This document shows positions 6,442-63,762 of a DNA stretch of 64,000 bases, piece by piece. The notes below the pieces were generated by a model that did not search any database, was not told the origin of the DNA, and saw only the letters and a program-made list of their open reading frames with translations. Every line of letters starts with the position of its first letter. Positions within the stretch are counted from its first letter, which is position 1. A program made the position numbers and the translations under genes. The stretch is from an uncultured Candidatus Saccharibacteria bacterium. GTDB taxonomy: Bacteria > Patescibacteriota > WWE3 > UBA101185 > UBA10185. Where the stretch lies: positions 81,080 through 145,079 of the forward strand of contig CAZEBU010000002.1 of assembly GCA_964510435.1 (NCBI GenBank), read 5' to 3'.

Positions 6442-6527
6442 ATATGTATATTATATGTCAGTTTAGTTGTAATATATCCTTACAGGCACCACGCTAGTTC
6501 ATTAATGCAACAATAGTGATTGTGGTA

Positions 6528-6556
6528 TTTACAAAATTATAAATGGTTGCTAAAAT
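6528..6556 (+). promoter_or_regulatory. sigma70-like promoter (-35 TTTACA, 17-nt spacer, extended -10 TGcTAAAAT)
   Basis: tttaca at 6528-6533 and tgctaaaat at 6548-6556. The predicted transcription start is near 6563, at the base of a structured region. Confidence 0.45.
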
Positions 6557-6562
6557 GTAAGC

Positions 6563-6655
6563 GTGCTAGTCGGGCGAAAGCCCTTCTTCAGCTAAGACAT
6601 GTCTAAGCCGAGAGACTAGCACACTAAGAGCGCCTTTTCTGGCGCTTCTTTTTAT
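6563..6655 (+). ncRNA. candidate small RNA with a three-way-junction fold, ending in an intrinsic terminator
   Basis: A 9-bp outer stem gtgctagtc/gactagcac (6563-6571 / 6614-6622) encloses hairpins gggcGAAAgccc and gctaagacatgtctaagc. A GC stem agagcgcc..ggcgct (6627-6647) plus a cUUUUUaUU tract follows. Sits directly downstream of the promoter above and is antisense to the last ~11 codons of ORF 6624-7061. Confidence 0.4.
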
Positions 6656-7061
6656 TAGATTTCATTTTATTCTTATTCATAACACTTCCAAGTTTGTAAA
6701 TATTGTTATAGATTCCTATTTTTTCAACGACTACTTTTATCTTCATTCTTGGGGATACTGGATGAATAAGCTCATAACTTATAAGGTCTTTCATCTTACC
6801 CTTATATTTTTTCTTTCTCCTTCTTATTTCTGAAATACTCTCACAATTTTCAATGACCTCTGGTGCGTATTGTAAACACCTAAGTCTCATATATTGATCG
6901 CTAATATTTCTAGGCATTCTATTTGAGTCGTAAATGAGATGATTAAATCCTTCTGATGTGAAATGAACGTCAGATTTTAGAACAGGACAATAAACCTTTT
7001 TAATTTTTTTGTAGTCTTTACGCTTTTCTTCAATTAATTTCTGTATATCTTTCGTGATCAA
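6624..7061 (-). CDS. hypothetical highly basic protein
   Basis: 145 aa; a cysteine-containing N-terminal half and an extremely K/R-rich C-terminus (KNKMKSNKKKRQKRRS). No family recognised. Confidence 0.45.
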   Translation of the reverse strand: MITKDIQKLIEEKRKDYKKIKKVYCPVLKSDVHFTSEGFNHLIYDSNRMPRNISDQYMRLRCLQYAPEVIENCESISEIRRRKKKYKGKMKDLISYELIHPVSPRMKIKVVVEKIGIYNNIYKLGSVMNKNKMKSNKKKRQKRRS

Positions 7062-7313
7062 TTATCTGTCTTTCTTATAGTACTTTTATAAAACAATAAG
7101 CTGGTCTACTACCAATCCCTTGCTTTTTTAACGGTAACTCTCTTTAGAAATTCCTGCAAAAGTCGCTATTTTGCGCCCATAAAGTAGCACTCCAAGGTCT
7201 TAGGTGTCAAGTGGTGATTTTCTAGGTACGCGCAACAATTAAACATAACATCCAGGAGTCCCGTTAAATTTATTGTAAGCAAGCTTTTATAACCATCGAT
7301 AGTGGTATATACC

Positions 7314-7814
7314 TCACTCCGAGTTTATATTTTGCCAAAATATCTTTGGGTGGGGATATCCACCATAAATGGCGGCACTCTTATAAGCCTTTTTTACATT
7401 CTTTAAACCCTGCGTAGTCAAAACTTTGGTTAAACGCCCCCTGTACAGTTCTCTCGAAAGCTTTGGTTTAAACACAGGCATGCAAATCCAGTCCAGTATT
7501 TCCTCAATCAATGTATGCTCTTCATCCCTAAGATTTCCTGCTTTAATAGAGTAGCCTTTATTAGTCTTTTCAGTTTTATCACTATATATAGTCTTGTTAG
7601 AGTTCATCCTGTGGTACGTTCTATGGGGAATCTTTGATTCATTCTGTGGTGCAAATCCAATCACAGAGTCCACTTCATTTATCGTTACAACAGTTCCCTT
7701 TCTTGAAGGGCTCTGCTCTATTAACTGGTACACGTTTTCTAGTCTTTTAAGTGCCTTGCCTACAGTTCTGTGGTCACATCCAAACTCTCTGGCTATTTCT
7801 CTCCAACCACACAC
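7314..7814 (-). CDS. N-terminal HTH-domain protein (possible mobile-element or phage remnant)
   Basis: 166 aa with a GTG start. Residues 5-25 (REIAREFGCDHRTVGKALKRL) form a classic HTH like those of transposase OrfA or terminase small subunits. An in-frame stop lies 2 codons upstream, so the N-terminus is intact. Confidence 0.45.
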   Translation of the reverse strand: MCGWREIAREFGCDHRTVGKALKRLENVYQLIEQSPSRKGTVVTINEVDSVIGFAPQNESKIPHRTYHRMNSNKTIYSDKTEKTNKGYSIKAGNLRDEEHTLIEEILDWICMPVFKPKLSRELYRGRLTKVLTTQGLKNVKKAYKSAAIYGGYPHPKIFWQNINSE

Positions 7815-57379: not shown

Positions 57380-58606
57380 TTATCTAGTTAGCACTAAAGC
57401 ACTAGGCAAACTCCTGCCGGGACCTACCACATATCTACCATCAATATACATGGCAGAAGAACCGCCGCCGTCTAAGTTTAGGGCATGCTTGGCACCCAAA
57501 GCTCTCATGGCATAGGCTGCCTCTTCCACCGTGGCGCTGGTGATTATTGCCAAATACAAATTTTCATTACCCATACCAAGTGCTCCACGTGTGCCCTTAA
57601 TTTTCTGATACGAGGTTAGATCGCCATCTTTGACCACGACTTCTCCGTTTTTTAACAATGATGGGTAATTTGACACCCCCGCATCCACGCTATCTCCACC
57701 ATATTCGTTGGATTTCTTATAAAATTTGAAGGAACTTCCCCTAAAGGTAAACAAGCCTGTTTTATTCCATGATAAGGCATCTTTGTTGATCCATTTTCCT
57801 CTGCTCGAATGATACAGGGCATAGTCAAAAGAGTTAACTTTACCGCCACAGGATGAATAGTCGGGTGGACAAAAGTATGCGCCGTTCATACCGGCAAATC
57901 CACCATTTTCACTAACATATTCGTGTAGAGGTTTTGTCGGGCAGTTATCAGAACAGTCTCCGGAAGAAGCCGCCACTGTTTTTACCCTCACCCCTGATAA
58001 AGCAACTTTGATCAAGTAAACTCCATGACTTCCCTTTTCCGTTTGTACGGTGATATAAGTATAACCAGAGGAAGGTGGTGGCGGAGGAGGCGGTAAAGTA
58101 GCCAGATATTTATCATATGATTCGTCCAACTTTGAATTCTCTTCCGCAATCTCCTCTACTAAACCCTCAAATTCCTGATCAATAATTTTTTGTCCCCATT
58201 TGTCTATACTACTTAAGCTTTCCTCTGTTTCTAAGCCAGAATTTTCATTTCTTTTTACTTTAGCTTCAAAATCACCGTAAAGTTCATAAACTTCATTGAC
58301 ATTGGCTACCAAACTTCCTTCGGGTGTATTTTTAAATAGTTCTATCTCCTCCTCCAAATTTGCTAGCTGGTTTTCTAAATTCTGAGCTTCCAAAAGAGCT
58401 AAATGCTCATTAAATAGTTCTTCGGATAAGTTTTCTTTAAAATTTTCCTGGGCCTCCTTAACTTGGCTGTAACTTAAACCCAGATTGCTTATCTCATTTT
58501 GCGAGCGCACAAACAGAAAGCTCAATAACAATATGGGTGCATAAATCAAAATGGCAGCGAAGACCACCGCATAGATGTGTTTTTTCCTAGGATGGGGCAG
58601 TTTCAT
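57380..58606 (-). CDS. phosphodiester glycosidase-family protein (NAGPA-like), membrane-anchored
   Basis: 408 aa; N-terminal TM helix, coiled-coil, a poly-Pro linker, and a C-terminal domain with LNLDGGGSS typical of PF09992. Confidence 0.7.
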   Translation of the reverse strand: MKLPHPRKKHIYAVVFAAILIYAPILLLSFLFVRSQNEISNLGLSYSQVKEAQENFKENLSEELFNEHLALLEAQNLENQLANLEEEIELFKNTPEGSLVANVNEVYELYGDFEAKVKRNENSGLETEESLSSIDKWGQKIIDQEFEGLVEEIAEENSKLDESYDKYLATLPPPPPPPSSGYTYITVQTEKGSHGVYLIKVALSGVRVKTVAASSGDCSDNCPTKPLHEYVSENGGFAGMNGAYFCPPDYSSCGGKVNSFDYALYHSSRGKWINKDALSWNKTGLFTFRGSSFKFYKKSNEYGGDSVDAGVSNYPSLLKNGEVVVKDGDLTSYQKIKGTRGALGMGNENLYLAIITSATVEEAAYAMRALGAKHALNLDGGGSSAMYIDGRYVVGPGRSLPSALVLTR

Positions 58607-58733: not shown

Positions 58734-59075
58734 ATGCCAAAGGAGAAGACTGTGAATGGAACTACCGATGCCTTGTATAAATGTGGTGAAAGCCTTCAGG
58801 TTGCCAAGGAGGACAAAGAATTTCGTGAGGTTATTGAGTGTTACCAGGAAGTCCTAGACAATGCGGAGGACGCCAGGGGAAAACTCAATGTTCTCATGAT
58901 GATGTGCCAGACCTACCTTAGGCTGAAAGATTTTGCTAAGTCAGATTACACAACTACACTGAGTCTTCTGGGTAAGTGTGCGGTCTTGGCTTCAGAAAGC
59001 GGTAATCATAAAAACCGTGCCTTAGTGTTGCAGATGAGAAGGTACTGCAAACAACGTGAGCACGAGACTGTGTAG
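58734..59075 (+). CDS. hypothetical helical (TPR-like) protein, GC-elevated
   Basis: 113 aa; GC content is visibly higher than the flanks. Weak resemblance to the ORF at 63094-63762. Confidence 0.45.
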   Translation: MPKEKTVNGTTDALYKCGESLQVAKEDKEFREVIECYQEVLDNAEDARGKLNVLMMMCQTYLRLKDFAKSDYTTTLSLLGKCAVLASESGNHKNRALVLQMRRYCKQREHETV

Positions 59076-59170: not shown

Positions 59171-60940
59171 ATGTGCGGTATATTCGGATACGTTTCTAAA
59201 ACAAAAACTGACACTTTCGAAGTTATCCACAAGGGTTTAAAAAGGCTAGAATACCGAGGTTACGACTCCTGGGGTATATCCTTGCTGGATGAAAAAATCA
59301 TAAAAACATACAAGACAACTAATGATCTCTCGGAAAATCCCCAATTTACCACACCTAAAGTAAAAATCGGCATGGGACACACTCGATGGGCCACTCATGG
59401 AGGTGTAACAAAAAATAACGCACACCCGCACTCTTCATCTGACGGTTCTTTCGTTTTAGCTCAAAACGGTATTGTGGAAAACTATAGGCAGTTAAAGGAT
59501 TTTCTCACTAAAGAGGGGTACGAGTTTTCGACCCAAACAGATACAGAGGTTATTGTAAAGCTTATTGAGTACTATCTAAAAAAGATGAAGGGTTTCGAAA
59601 AAGCGGTTGTCTCTGCCTTTAAAAAACTTAAAGGCCGTAATACTATCATCATCTTGACCAATGAAAACAAGATCATAGCCATAAAAAACGGGTCTCCACT
59701 TACCGTTGGCCTAAAAAAAGGCGAATGGTTTTTTTCTTCCGACACCTTGTCATTCTCCGACAAAACTAAGCGGGCCATTATTTTAGAGGACGGGCAGATG
59801 GTTATTTTTGATGATTCAGGATTAATTATTAAAGATTTGGCATCTCAAAAAGTTGTCCACAAGAACACTACTGATCTTTCGTACCAACAAGACAAAATTG
59901 ATAAAGAGGGGTTTGACCATTTTATGCTCAAAGAAATAGTCGAACAGAAAAACGCCATTCTTGATTCTACAAATTATTCTCTCAACGAATTAAAACCGCT
60001 TATTGATCTTATTAAGAAAAGTGAAAAGGTTTATACCGTAGGTGCGGGAACCGCTAGCTTTGCTGCCGGTCAAGTTGCATATTTACTAAGGAAAATTGCC
60101 CAAGTACCTGCAGTAGAACTTAAAGCTTACGAAGTCGAGAGCTACCAAGATATTTTTAATAATAACTCGGTCTTGATTGCCTTAAGCCAAAGCGGGGAAA
60201 CCGCTGACACTCTTGAGGTTATTACATTAGCCAAAAAGAAAAAAACTAAAATCGTTTCTTTAGTAAACATGATGGGGTCCACCATATCCAGAGGATCAGA
60301 TCTACCATATTTTCTCAGAGTTGGTCCGGAAATATGCGTGGTTTCCACTAAAGCCTTTACGGGAAAAATTGCTTGGGGTTATTTATTGGCAAATGCCTTA
60401 ATGAGAAATTACTCTGATGCTAAGGAAAACTTGGCAGAAACTTCGAAGAAGCTGGATAAATTTCTAAAACCCGACTTTTTTAAAAATATAGAAACTCTAT
60501 CTAAAAAGTTAATTAAAAAGGAACACATTTTTATTCTTGGTAGGGGCCAAAACTATTACATCGCTCAGGAAGGGGCCTTAAAAATCAAAGAAACTTCCTA
60601 TAAACACGCTGAGGCTTTTTCCGCCGGTGAGCTGAAACATGGAGTCATCGCTCTGGTAGAAAAGGGTGTTCCTGTAATTTGCGTAGTTTCAGAGGATGAG
60701 GAAAAAGACACTATGCTAAATGCTGCCTACGAGGTTAAAGCTAGAGATGGAGAAATTATAGGTATTGCTAATAAAGACAACAAGGTATTTGATACTTTCA
60801 TCAAAACTCCCAATGGCAAAGCCTTAGATTTTTTAGTCAATGTTATTCCGTTTCAGTTGATGGGTTACTATATGGGACTATTACAGGGATTTGATCCTGA
60901 TAAACCGAGGAATTTGGCTAAGAGTGTTACCGTGAAATAA
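59171..60940 (+). CDS. glmS: glutamine--fructose-6-phosphate aminotransferase
   Basis: 589 aa; MCGIFGY N-terminal nucleophile, two SIS domains, and the C-terminus ...AKSVTVK. Confidence 0.95.
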   Translation: MCGIFGYVSKTKTDTFEVIHKGLKRLEYRGYDSWGISLLDEKIIKTYKTTNDLSENPQFTTPKVKIGMGHTRWATHGGVTKNNAHPHSSSDGSFVLAQNGIVENYRQLKDFLTKEGYEFSTQTDTEVIVKLIEYYLKKMKGFEKAVVSAFKKLKGRNTIIILTNENKIIAIKNGSPLTVGLKKGEWFFSSDTLSFSDKTKRAIILEDGQMVIFDDSGLIIKDLASQKVVHKNTTDLSYQQDKIDKEGFDHFMLKEIVEQKNAILDSTNYSLNELKPLIDLIKKSEKVYTVGAGTASFAAGQVAYLLRKIAQVPAVELKAYEVESYQDIFNNNSVLIALSQSGETADTLEVITLAKKKKTKIVSLVNMMGSTISRGSDLPYFLRVGPEICVVSTKAFTGKIAWGYLLANALMRNYSDAKENLAETSKKLDKFLKPDFFKNIETLSKKLIKKEHIFILGRGQNYYIAQEGALKIKETSYKHAEAFSAGELKHGVIALVEKGVPVICVVSEDEEKDTMLNAAYEVKARDGEIIGIANKDNKVFDTFIKTPNGKALDFLVNVIPFQLMGYYMGLLQGFDPDKPRNLAKSVTVK

Positions 60941-60949
60941 AAATAGAGA

Positions 60950-61436
60950 AAAAAAGAACCCGTGGTCTGCGTCTCAAGCTGGCACGAAGCCTACTCAAGC
61001 GTATAGCAGAACACGGGTCGGTTGTTGTGGTGCTGGTTTGAAGACACCCACGAATAATGCTGAAAACTGAGATTCAGCAAGATCCCGGAGCTAAGTGGAT
61101 GCAAAATTTCTTGTTTATGCAACCGCAACCGCGGAGCGATCGCGCAAGAAATCTTTCATTCTCTCCAGCACAAAAAAAGCCTCCCCACAAAGTAAGTGTG
61201 CTTCCGGCGCACCTTCGTGTTTTAGCATGGCACCCCTCAATGGGGCGGACCTTTGATCCCAAGGCTACCTTCCTCCAAATCCCTTACGGGATCCCACGAT
61301 CGGAACTATGCTCGTTGGTTTTCACCAACTTGAATAGCCTGGATTGGGTATTTCTCAGTCGTGCCTCTGCCGATTTTTTCCTTTCTCAATTTTTAAGATT
61401 CGTTTACTTCATTTGATTGGTGTAAGACGAAATGTA
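60950..61436 (-). ncRNA. GC-rich structured non-coding RNA candidate of undetermined class (possibly divergent RNase P RNA)
   Basis: About 480 nt with no credible ORF and ~50% GC in a ~36% GC genome. A near-consensus promoter lies on the minus strand: TTGACA (plus 61467-61472), an 18-nt spacer, then TATAAA (plus 61443-61448). The 3' end is a 12-bp hairpin cccgtggtctgc...gcagaacacggg (60957-61017) followed by T7 on the minus strand. Internal GNRA hairpins are present (gttggtGAAAaccaac, cccGTAAggg). aaaggtccgccccattgaggggtgccatgctaaaac loosely resembles the RNase P P4/P8 region. Confidence 0.35.
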
Positions 61437-61512
61437 ACGCAATTTATATACCATAATGTCAATTCTGTCAACCTATAGTGAGAAGGGTAGGTAAGATAGA
61501 GTTACAATAAAA

Positions 61513-62355
61513 TTATTTACCGGGTACCAGCAACAGATCAACATAATCATTTTTCCCGTTTTCCGGTATATTCTTTTTAACCACATCTTCCACATTCGTT
61601 TTAACAGTTTTCCTTTTGACCTTATTGATCACTTCAATGGTGTAGCCAAGATCTGCAAAAAACCGCAGTAATTCCTTAGGTTTGACATTCCATTCCTTCA
61701 TACCATAAGGCCAGAACTCCATCAAAACAATTGGGCGGCTCCTCTTGATCAACTTCTTGCCGCCCATAAAAACCAAACCCTCAGAACCCTGCGTGTCAAT
61801 TTTGATCAGATCGATCTTGTCCAACATGCCCATTTCACCAAAATGTTCATCAAGTGTCATAGCTTCAACTTCCAGATAAGAATTTCCTCTGTAAGTGTTG
61901 TTTTTAGAAAAAGAATGCCCGCCCACATTTACTTCGTCTAAATAAAGTTTTTGCTTGCCCTTTTTATCTGATAAAGCACGAGGATACAAAGTTACGTTAT
62001 CCTGTTTAAGATCTGCTAACCTGCCCTGCAAAACTTTGTGGGTACTTGGCTCAGGTTCAAAGGAGAAAACCCTCCCGGATGGAGAAACCTTTTTGCTTGC
62101 TTCCACGGTATACAAACCAAGATTAGCGCCAATATCTACTACCCTCATACCCGGCTCAAGCAGTTCTTCAAAAAGTCTGAACTCAAAACTTTCACTTAGC
62201 CTTTGGAAAAAAATGACGATCTTAAAGATCAAGCTTCTATGCTTATATTTGTATGTCAATGATGAAAAAGGAGAAATTATCGGAAAATCCCACACCTCGT
62301 GGGTTGTTGCGAACCTGGTAAATTTTTCGGACAATTTTGCGTAAGTCTTTCTCAT
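61513..62355 (-). CDS. FkbM-family methyltransferase
   Basis: 280 aa; VVDIGANLGLYTV...FSFEPEP is the TIGR01444 FkbM signature within a SAM-MTase fold. Confidence 0.8.
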   Translation of the reverse strand: MRKTYAKLSEKFTRFATTHEVWDFPIISPFSSLTYKYKHRSLIFKIVIFFQRLSESFEFRLFEELLEPGMRVVDIGANLGLYTVEASKKVSPSGRVFSFEPEPSTHKVLQGRLADLKQDNVTLYPRALSDKKGKQKLYLDEVNVGGHSFSKNNTYRGNSYLEVEAMTLDEHFGEMGMLDKIDLIKIDTQGSEGLVFMGGKKLIKRSRPIVLMEFWPYGMKEWNVKPKELLRFFADLGYTIEVINKVKRKTVKTNVEDVVKKNIPENGKNDYVDLLLVPGK

Positions 62356-62408
62356 AAATCATTCTTAAATGACTCATTATATCACCCACTTAAAATAACA
62401 ACCCATAA

Positions 62409-63093: not shown

Positions 63094-63762
63094 ATGCAGT
63101 ATAAAAATGATCTCTTGGATTTCAATGAGCTCATTGAAAAAGGAGAAAAGGTACGGGAGATTATAGGAGATTCGAAGGCAGCCATCTCGGAGTTCGTACT
63201 GGCTTACAATTTTGCTACAAGCAATGAGCAAAGGTCTACGGCACTAAGGCAGATCGGGTTGTGCGAAGAACATCTAGGCAACATGGATCGTGCTCTGAAA
63301 TACTACCACGATGCTCTGGAGGAAGGTCAGTCGGCTGAACCCCGAGACGAAGCCTCCATGGCTAGAGCCCTAAGACACATTTCTTCCGTGAAGCGTAAGC
63401 AAGGTCTTTACGACGAAGCAATTGAAAAAGCCATACTTGCTTGGAGCCACATGAATAGTGTGAGGCCTCCACCTACGGACATTGTCTGGGTGACGCATGG
63501 CGTGGTTCAAGTTTTAGTCGAAGCGGGAAAGGGCCGGGATGAGATCAAGCGCTGGTTAAAGAGGGAGTCGTCCCATATTCTCTACATGCTTCGAAACGAA
63601 GCAAATGACATCCGTCGCTGGGTTTGGTTTTCCGGCTGGCTCATGGACCTGCATAAAGTATACGGTGCGATTGCCTGGCCTGCCAAAGCTCTTGCTTACC
63701 GAATCTCCAAAAAGGCAGAGTTAACAATCAGGCAAGAGCAAATAGAAGGAAAGCGTCTGTAA
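63094..63762 (+). CDS. hypothetical TPR-like helical protein, GC-elevated
   Basis: 222 aa; helical repeats (ALRQIGLCEEHLGNMDRALKYYHDALEEG). GC is noticeably higher than the genome background. Confidence 0.5.
   Translation: MQYKNDLLDFNELIEKGEKVREIIGDSKAAISEFVLAYNFATSNEQRSTALRQIGLCEEHLGNMDRALKYYHDALEEGQSAEPRDEASMARALRHISSVKRKQGLYDEAIEKAILAWSHMNSVRPPPTDIVWVTHGVVQVLVEAGKGRDEIKRWLKRESSHILYMLRNEANDIRRWVWFSGWLMDLHKVYGAIAWPAKALAYRISKKAELTIRQEQIEGKRL

Follow-up and report, generated by a model that had tools for sequence, protein, structure and literature searches.

In a 64,000-nt stretch of genomic DNA (hereafter, “the window”) whose host belongs to candidate division WWE3 (Katanobacteria, in the candidate phyla radiation, or CPR), a 572-nt gap separates the stop codon of glmS (60940) from that of a gene for an FkbM-type methyltransferase (61513). 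Our analysis indicates that this gap (60941-61512) probably holds a stand-alone gene, on the minus strand, for a structured non-coding RNA of ~490 nt, which falls outside the families of Rfam 15 and has a second member in WWE3. An earlier note on this DNA had left the choice between a highly divergent RNase P RNA (rnpB) and an uncharacterized large structured RNA. The evidence supports the second of these, as another WWE3 copy conserves the promoter, the terminator and the architecture and shows compensatory changes in its base pairs. Apart from the length of the promoter spacer and the size of the terminator hairpin, the account given in that note was borne out.

Background

CPR genomes are tiny, ~1 Mb, and we know of very few non-coding RNAs from CPR bacteria. 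A search of the literature turned up no account of such RNAs from WWE3 or the CPR. Large structured RNAs beyond those of the ribosome, RNase P and transfer-messenger RNA (tmRNA) are rare and have repeatedly been found to do unusual things; some large bacterial RNAs reportedly self-assemble. Because CPR genomes are so small, a conserved RNA of ~500 nt with a strong promoter of its own is unlikely to be dispensable where it is present. A new family would offer a handle on the biology of the CPR, which is not yet approachable by culture, as well as a structural target.

A homologous element in a second WWE3 genome

We looked up contigs that encode close relatives of the glmS of the window. One of these, Logan contig 838910 from run SRR21285587 (L096), whose glmS is 69% identical to that of the window, carries a homologue of the element. 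With the window element as the query, nhmmer matches positions 1372-1065 of this contig at E=1.6e-9, and the reverse search, run on 1.4 Mb that comprised the related loci and the window, recovers the pair at E=1.4e-7 with no further match. The L096 copy (~1579-1069, minus strand) sits in an 817-nt gap, where the homology spans the element from promoter to terminator and then ends. No second copy was found within the window itself.

GC content is raised in both copies. In L096, it is 0.475 for the element versus 0.397 for the contig and 0.30 for the rest of the gap. In the window, it is 0.449 for the whole gap and 0.506 for the core (60957-61345), versus 0.388 for the window and 0.26-0.43 for its remaining mapped intergenic regions, in keeping with the ~50% GC segment first noticed between glmS and the FkbM gene.

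Promoter, terminator and predicted transcript

Each copy has its own promoter and an intrinsic terminator consisting of a hairpin and then U7. On the minus strand of the window, a -35 box TTGACA (61466-61471) is followed by a -10 box TATAAA (61443-61448). Both boxes had been recognized earlier, with a spacer given as 18 nt that we count as 17 nt. An automated promoter scan overlooked the TATAAA box because it demands T at the last -10 position. The same -35 hexamer occurs at 1614-1609 in L096, where the promoter reads TTGACA-N17-TAAAAT or, alternatively, N15-TATAAA.

The terminator of the window copy (60949-61019, minus strand) comprises a two-part hairpin (61019-60957), U7 (60955-60949) and then CUCU. 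The earlier note had placed a 12-bp hairpin with a U7 tract ~480 nt downstream of the promoter. The position holds (~485 nt) and the size does not, since a 13-bp base and an apical stem of 10 bp together bring the hairpin to ~23 bp. Its U7 adjoins the glmS stop codon. The L096 terminator, CGACCCG...CGGGU-CUUUUUUUCUCU, has the same two-part shape, and the tail CUUUUUUUCUCU that comes after the hairpin is identical in the two copies. With the 5' end placed ~6-8 nt past the -10 box and the 3' end in the U7 tract, the predicted transcript covers 60949-61437 of the minus strand, or ~485-490 nt. A further U7 tract inside the element (61172-61178, minus strand) has no adjoining stem and is therefore a linker and not a terminator; L096 has UUAAAAA at this place.

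Shared structure and base-pair changes

Folded separately, the window and L096 copies give the same layout over their 3' two-thirds. It starts with GGAGGAA, GCY and then AAAACAC, which opens an 11-bp hairpin that carries an ACU(U)A bulge and has CCG in its loop. It continues through GUG-R-GGAGGC, the GGC of which pairs back to GCY, through the U7/UUAAAAA linker and into a stem-closed domain, and it ends with CUUC..AAAC, another linker and the long terminator hairpin CGACCCG...CGGGU-U7. The stem-closed domain contains, in both copies, RGAUGAAARG, then hairpin A, which is variable, and hairpin B, made of the conserved strands GYAUCCAC / GUGGGU plus the conserved GAAUCUCNGNUUUUC.

RNAalifold, run on MAFFT alignments of three blocks, bears these pairs out. 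The core hairpin block (alignment A6) has 14 anchored pairs, with 3 both-side changes, 3 one-side changes and no broken pair. The blocks at the base of hairpin B (8 anchored pairs) and at the base of the terminator (7 anchored pairs) each have 1 both-side change, 1 one-side change and no broken pair. The sum over 29 anchored pairs is 5 both-side changes, 5 one-side changes and 0 broken pairs, for two sequences only. A count by hand covers 37 pairs, of which 25 are the same in the two copies, 5 differ on one side and 7 on both, and 0 are broken. That the promoter, the terminator and the pairs have been kept, the last with compensatory changes, at a glmS identity of 69% argues for selection on an RNA.

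The 5' third diverges widely between the copies, although each has a ..UAU/AUAG.. stem and then GAUCGU plus a hairpin ahead of GGAGGAA. A constant core with lineage-specific peripheral helices is a pattern typical of functional structured RNAs. A covariance model made from the two sequences (R3) gives each copy 72 bits and has no other match in 1.48 Mb; together with two single-sequence models (R1 and R2), it yielded no additional members in 0.3-1.5 Mb of related loci. R2, a model of the 5' domain, also gives 17.9 bits (rough E=0.0025) at window 7312-7468 on the minus strand, with many non-canonical pairs, and this match is probably due to chance.

Fold z-scores favor the minus strand in both copies. 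Over 501 nt, the window copy scores -3.64 on the minus strand versus -1.98 on the plus strand, and the L096 copy scores -4.97. When 250-nt windows are used, the window copy stands out in its 3' part alone, with z=-3.47 (of 256 background windows, 2.7% lie below -3). The predicted folds of both copies are multi-branched and ~490-510 nt long. The most extreme z-score for folding lies elsewhere in the window, at 6501-6750 (-5.15 minus, -4.07 plus); by eye, 6540-6663, after the open reading frame (ORF) 6624-7061, contains paired terminator-like hairpins, for which Rfam gives only weak chance matches to small RNAs.

Read from 5' to 3' on the minus strand, the window RNA is predicted to open with a hairpin, UUCGUCUUAC/GUAAACGAA (61399-61431, pairing probability 0.95); the L096 RNA likewise opens with a hairpin, but one of unrelated sequence. 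There follows a GAAA-capped hairpin (61305-61338) with base GCUAU..AUAGU and tip GUUGGU-GAAA-ACCAAC (pairing probability 1.00 for the tip), the L096 counterpart of which is a larger three-hairpin domain closed by ..CUAU/AUAG.. pairs. The next part of the fold (61278-61301) consists of the conserved GAUCGU and a GUAA-capped hairpin, GAUCCC-GUAA-GGGAUU (pairing probability 0.91), at whose position L096 has GAUCGU and then a hairpin with other sequence, CUCGUU/AACGAG. With these two, the GNRA-capped hairpins previously reported from the interior are recovered.

The GGAGGAA motif (61270-61276) is identical in L096; GGAGG is not rare in the genome (114 found vs 99 expected), and we dropped the idea that Shine-Dalgarno-like GGAGG motifs are special. 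A 39-nt insertion specific to the window (61227-61265), which forms a small branched hairpin, interrupts what reads in L096 as GGAGGAACUUC joined directly to GCCAAAACAC. The best conserved core occupies 61179-61226 and comprises GCY-AAAACAC, the 11-bp hairpin and GUG-R-GGAGGC. The 3' domain (61030-61171, pairing probabilities 0.72-1.0) is closed by the stem GUGCUGG/CCAGCAC and contains the junction GAAUGAAAG, hairpin A (61103-61155), which varies between the copies, and hairpin B (61044-61102), which reads GCAUCCAC...GAAUCUCAGUUUUC...GUGGGUGU.

Genomic neighborhood

The gap lies between glmS (59171-60940, plus strand), which is 74% identical to the glmS of a WWE3 metagenome-assembled genome, and the FkbM-type methyltransferase gene (61513-62355, minus strand, Pfam PF05050). 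The RNA comes after the FkbM gene and runs toward the convergent 3' end of glmS, with no downstream gene. It is on the same strand as a gene for a protein with a NAGPA phosphodiester glycosidase domain (57380-58606), from which it is separated by a TPR gene and glmS. The L096 element lies ~2.6 kb upstream of glmS; its terminator ends 26 nt before the start of a same-strand NAGPA-domain gene, orthologous to that of the window (67% identity), and no same-strand gene is found upstream. A position upstream of a same-strand gene is accordingly seen in L096 and not in the window, while in both genomes the element is at most 3 kb from the NAGPA-domain gene and glmS. The lack of a downstream gene in the window speaks against a leader, and the lack of an upstream gene on the same strand in L096 speaks against a 3' untranslated region, so that the element is probably neither. 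Only the reading as an independent gene suits the surroundings of both copies.

These surroundings also bear on an alternative in which the element is a cis-regulatory RNA, an amino-sugar sensor whose conditional terminator would, on read-through, yield NAGPA-domain mRNA in L096 or an antisense RNA to glmS in the window. Such a role would suit the 26-nt distance to the NAGPA-domain start codon in L096 and the way in which the window terminator abuts the stop codon of the convergent glmS. Neither the window nor the loci of its relatives yielded a glmS ribozyme, and GUGGGU of hairpin B could, as read from the sequence, pair with ACCCG of the terminator over 5 bp. Riboswitch-controlled antisense RNAs exist, as in the Listeria B12 riboswitch/AspocR and the Clostridium S-box antisense to ubiG. 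Yet the two copies have no downstream target in common, the lone 5-bp alternative pairing stands against a very long and stable hairpin of ~23 bp, and ~450 nt is far above the size of known aptamers, with no riboswitch model matching. Moreover, relatives that have no such element still regulate both the NAGPA-domain gene and glmS. We therefore regard a conditional terminator as unlikely.

Distribution among relatives

The region 3' of glmS (window 60941-62408 compared with L087-L098, L003 and L225) is a hot spot of gene-order change in WWE3. A convergent FkbM gene follows glmS after a 4-nt gap in L091-93, and a TPR gene and then FkbM follow it in L088-90. Other genes are found in L087, YdjM comes directly after glmS in L095/96, and a minus-strand tRNA gene does so in L097. 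In L003, a minus-strand tRNA gene lies ~0.9 kb away, past two TPR-like ORFs. Small paralogous TPR genes flank glmS in all relatives.

In GTDB species genomes, the element is missing 3' of glmS from the closest loci, and it is likewise absent from the DNA beside FkbM homologues. A regex search for the core motifs across all related loci gave nothing new. Viral contigs yielded no match to six degenerate patterns and no true homologue in five motif scans, and BLAST against phages and plasmids gave a 27-nt chance match or nothing. Since the element is absent near glmS in relatives closer than L096, it would seem to be patchy or relocating.

A patchy element, differently placed in two hosts and found at a highly variable site, could be non-functional or selfish DNA, that is, a foreign remnant of higher GC or a small mobile element with gene-like signals. 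A 21-nt A/T-rich inverted repeat (60938-60958 / 61375-61395) might be taken in the same sense, but it is of low complexity and does not form a meaningful terminal repeat. There is no transposase nearby, no target-site duplication and no second copy in the window, and the element does not resemble phages, plasmids or viral contigs. Together with the conservation of promoter, terminator and pairings through compensatory changes, this makes a selfish or inert origin quite improbable.

Some further observations concern the relatives and the gene starts of the window. At ~6780-6960 of L003, the 3' part of the tRNA gene that lies beyond glmS is repeated ~80 nt away (AACCCTAGGCAAATGGTTGGTGACCCCTACGGG occurs twice), which looks like the att-site scar of an integrated element. 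In the JGI contig L225 (241-2045), glmS is broken into two ORFs that overlap, one of 481 aa and one of 135 aa, by frameshift or assembly error. Most window genes are without a Shine-Dalgarno sequence and have a TATAAT-like box that ends 2-8 nt before the ATG (e.g., 59171, 55888, 50345, 48498; for glmS, the sequence is cctataatatATG), which suggests that this WWE3 genome commonly produces leaderless or near-leaderless mRNAs.

Comparison with known RNA families

We compared the element with the 4227 families of Rfam 15, using cmscan with a listing that ends at E<=10, or ~12 bits, so that weaker matches are invisible. The region, its halves and the L096 copy gave only chance matches to snoRNA and frameshift-element families, at E ~1-4. 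Over all 64 kb, Rfam at the gathering score and ARAGORN found no tRNA, rRNA or other Rfam family. The check proposed in the earlier note, with the models for RNase P, tmRNA, signal recognition particle (SRP) RNA, 6S RNA and large non-coding RNAs, gave no family match on either copy. 6S RNA is rod-like, with a central bubble, and ~180-200 nt long, and the multi-branched folds of both copies are unlike this rod. The models for OLE, ROOL, GOLLD, raiA, HEARO and the riboswitch classes were equally silent on both copies. Over 13 nt, the segment CUGAGAAAUACCC (61346-61358, minus strand) is identical to the E. coli thiM thiamine pyrophosphate (TPP) riboswitch; the TPP model does not match the region, and L096 does not conserve these 13 nt.

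RNase P RNA was the family to which the element had been likened. Neither RNaseP_bact_a nor RNaseP_bact_b matches at the gathering score, or at E<=10, on the window copy, its halves or L096. RNase P RNAs contain the motifs CR-I (GAGGAAAGUCCGGGC) and CR-V (ACAGAANCCGGCUUA), neither of which was found in the element with up to 3 mismatches allowed. No P4-type long-range helix and no P1 helix joining both ends is seen in the fold of either copy; the 3' end is taken up by the terminator hairpin, and near GGAGGAA, long-range pairing is conserved only in the 3-bp GCY/GGC, which encloses a single hairpin. The stretch reminiscent of the P4/P8 region does exist (~61254-61219), but it lies mostly within the 39-nt insertion that is missing from L096. 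A resemblance to RNase P seen in one sequence can thus fall in a non-conserved insertion.

A highly diverged rnpB of the sort that Rfam misses in some CPR genomes nevertheless has precedents. In 10 of 35 circular CPR genomes, RNase P RNAs were found only at RF00010 scores down to 5 bits, and such RNAs are often without several helices (Lui et al. 2021, PMC8172020); scores that low would be invisible in our searches. The size, the GC excess and the presence of a promoter and a terminator suit a housekeeping RNA; GGAGGAA is similar to the beginning of CR-I, as GGCUUU is to the end of CR-V. On the other hand, GGAGGAA..GCY and GGC flank a single hairpin of ~40 nt in L096 and so cannot be P4 around a specificity domain; the terminator hairpin forms the 3' end, so that the two ends do not pair into a P1; the stretch likened to P4/P8 is a lineage-specific insertion; and the element is missing at this locus in closer relatives. 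With the models and the CR-I and CR-V searches negative as well, we consider rnpB very unlikely.

Protein-coding potential

The absence of a credible ORF from the gap, as first described, is confirmed by codon scores, Pfam, homology and the comparison with L096. The codon log-likelihood of a 119-aa ORF on the plus strand is -0.14 per codon versus 0.18 +/- 0.08 for genes; in codon usage, this ORF resembles spurious antisense ORFs, and it has no Pfam family and no homologue. The concatenated six-frame translation of the gap, searched against 5.8 billion proteins and meant also to reveal homologous RNAs misannotated as ORFs, gave nothing at E<=10. Among 1.84 billion representatives, the 124-codon open frame gave one 28-bit match, to a 737-aa protein with a five-fold repeat; we judge it to be a chance match inflated by that repeat. 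The window and L096 copies share no reading frame (best tblastn match 22 bits). A 14-codon ORF, MKDFLRDRSAVAVA (61115-61159, minus strand), is preceded by GGAGAGA and lies inside hairpin A. It ends ...DRSAVAVA-stop, which recalls a tmRNA tag; nothing beyond AUGAAA is conserved in L096.

The L088-90 loci have TPR genes (102-104 aa, plus strand) between glmS and the FkbM gene. A degraded TPR gene was considered and rejected: the TPR proteins match each other (E=1e-6 to 1e-21) and match no frame of the gap (all <=2 bits). The earlier scenario of a decayed protein gene was tested, and no such gene was found. Two TPR-family genes of the window, at 58734-59075 and 63094-63762, have GC contents of 0.46 and 0.48 and the poorest codon scores among the window genes.

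A protein-coding or decayed gene, be it the 119-aa ORF, a TPR gene or the 14-aa peptide, could appeal to the size and strand of the L088-90 TPR gene, to the high GC and poor codon scores of TPR genes in this genome, to a run of 124 open codons that is long for non-coding DNA and to the GGAGAGA before the short ORF. Given that neither ORF is conserved in L096 and that the protein searches came back empty, it is highly improbable. The least probable of the alternatives, a diverged tmRNA (ssrA), would suit the size and the tag-like frame inside a hairpin, but ARAGORN finds no tRNA or tmRNA in the region at its default or 80% thresholds (one junk match at 60%), no model matches at E<=10, the frame is absent from L096, and the sequence has no GGGG 5' acceptor strand, T-arm or CCA end, the last two as already reported.

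Discussion

Judging from two sequences and a predicted transcript, the element between glmS and the FkbM gene is probably genuine, one of an undescribed family of structured RNAs in WWE3. Several points weigh against this view. Two sequences are too few for proper covariation statistics, their alignment was made partly by hand, and their 5' thirds can barely be aligned. The single-sequence covariance models gave L096 only 7.4 and 10.6 bits, albeit at the correct positions, and the 5' and middle 250-nt pieces of the window copy are unremarkable, with fold z ~-1.3. The promoter match is weak taken alone: the TTGACA-N17-TATAAA pattern occurs once in the window versus 0.22 times expected, and 19% of shuffles contain at least one match. 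Closer relatives, with glmS 70-74% identical, do not have the element in the DNA examined around glmS (up to 10 kb upstream and 0.25-6 kb downstream). In JGI metagenomes, six degenerate patterns found only an identical contig, VAPB010146989.1 (NCBI assembly GCA_006243175.1).

If the element is an independent RNA gene, its sigma-70-type promoter (TTGACA-N17-TATAAA) would give rise to a discrete, stable RNA of ~490 nt. The long 3' hairpin would terminate transcription and stay part of the mature molecule. Such an RNA may act in trans, probably as the RNA component of a ribonucleoprotein with a protein partner. A role tied to amino-sugar or envelope metabolism is possible, the only hint being the vicinity of the NAGPA-domain gene and glmS. 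A bolder version, to which we give a small chance, holds that the element represents a new large RNA class specific to WWE3 or the CPR, tied to these two genes and sensing or controlling the supply of envelope amino sugars, maybe via a conditional terminator, in hosts that we take to be without the glmS ribozyme and GlmY/GlmZ. Whatever the function, two sequences and a partial consensus structure are a concrete seed for a covariance-model search.

How does the element compare with known systems? With GlmY/GlmZ and the glmS ribozyme, it shares a link to glmS and amino-sugar metabolism, here by position alone and in two genomes; unlike them, it lies outside the glmS 5' untranslated region, and their Rfam models are silent. 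Like the Listeria and Clostridium antisense systems, it is a structured RNA that ends in a terminator, either convergent to a gene (window) or before one (L096), but it is much larger and has no known aptamer, no convincing antiterminator and no shared target. The likeness to RNase P RNA (RF00010, RF00011) extends to the size, the GC excess, the promoter and terminator, the constant core with a variable periphery and the GGAGGAA motif; it differs in having no CR-I, CR-V, P4 pseudoknot or P1, and a single hairpin between the candidate P4 strands. Finally, there are OLE, ROOL, GOLLD, raiA and HEARO, large bacterial RNAs with little or no known function. The element does not match their Rfam models, has two members and comes from a CPR host, and none of their characteristic neighbors, such as oapA of OLE or IscB of HEARO, lies beside it. 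Like these RNAs, it is several hundred nucleotides long and multi-domain, with GNRA-capped hairpins, and it occupies a GC-rich gap in an AT-rich genome as an independent gene of a narrow lineage.

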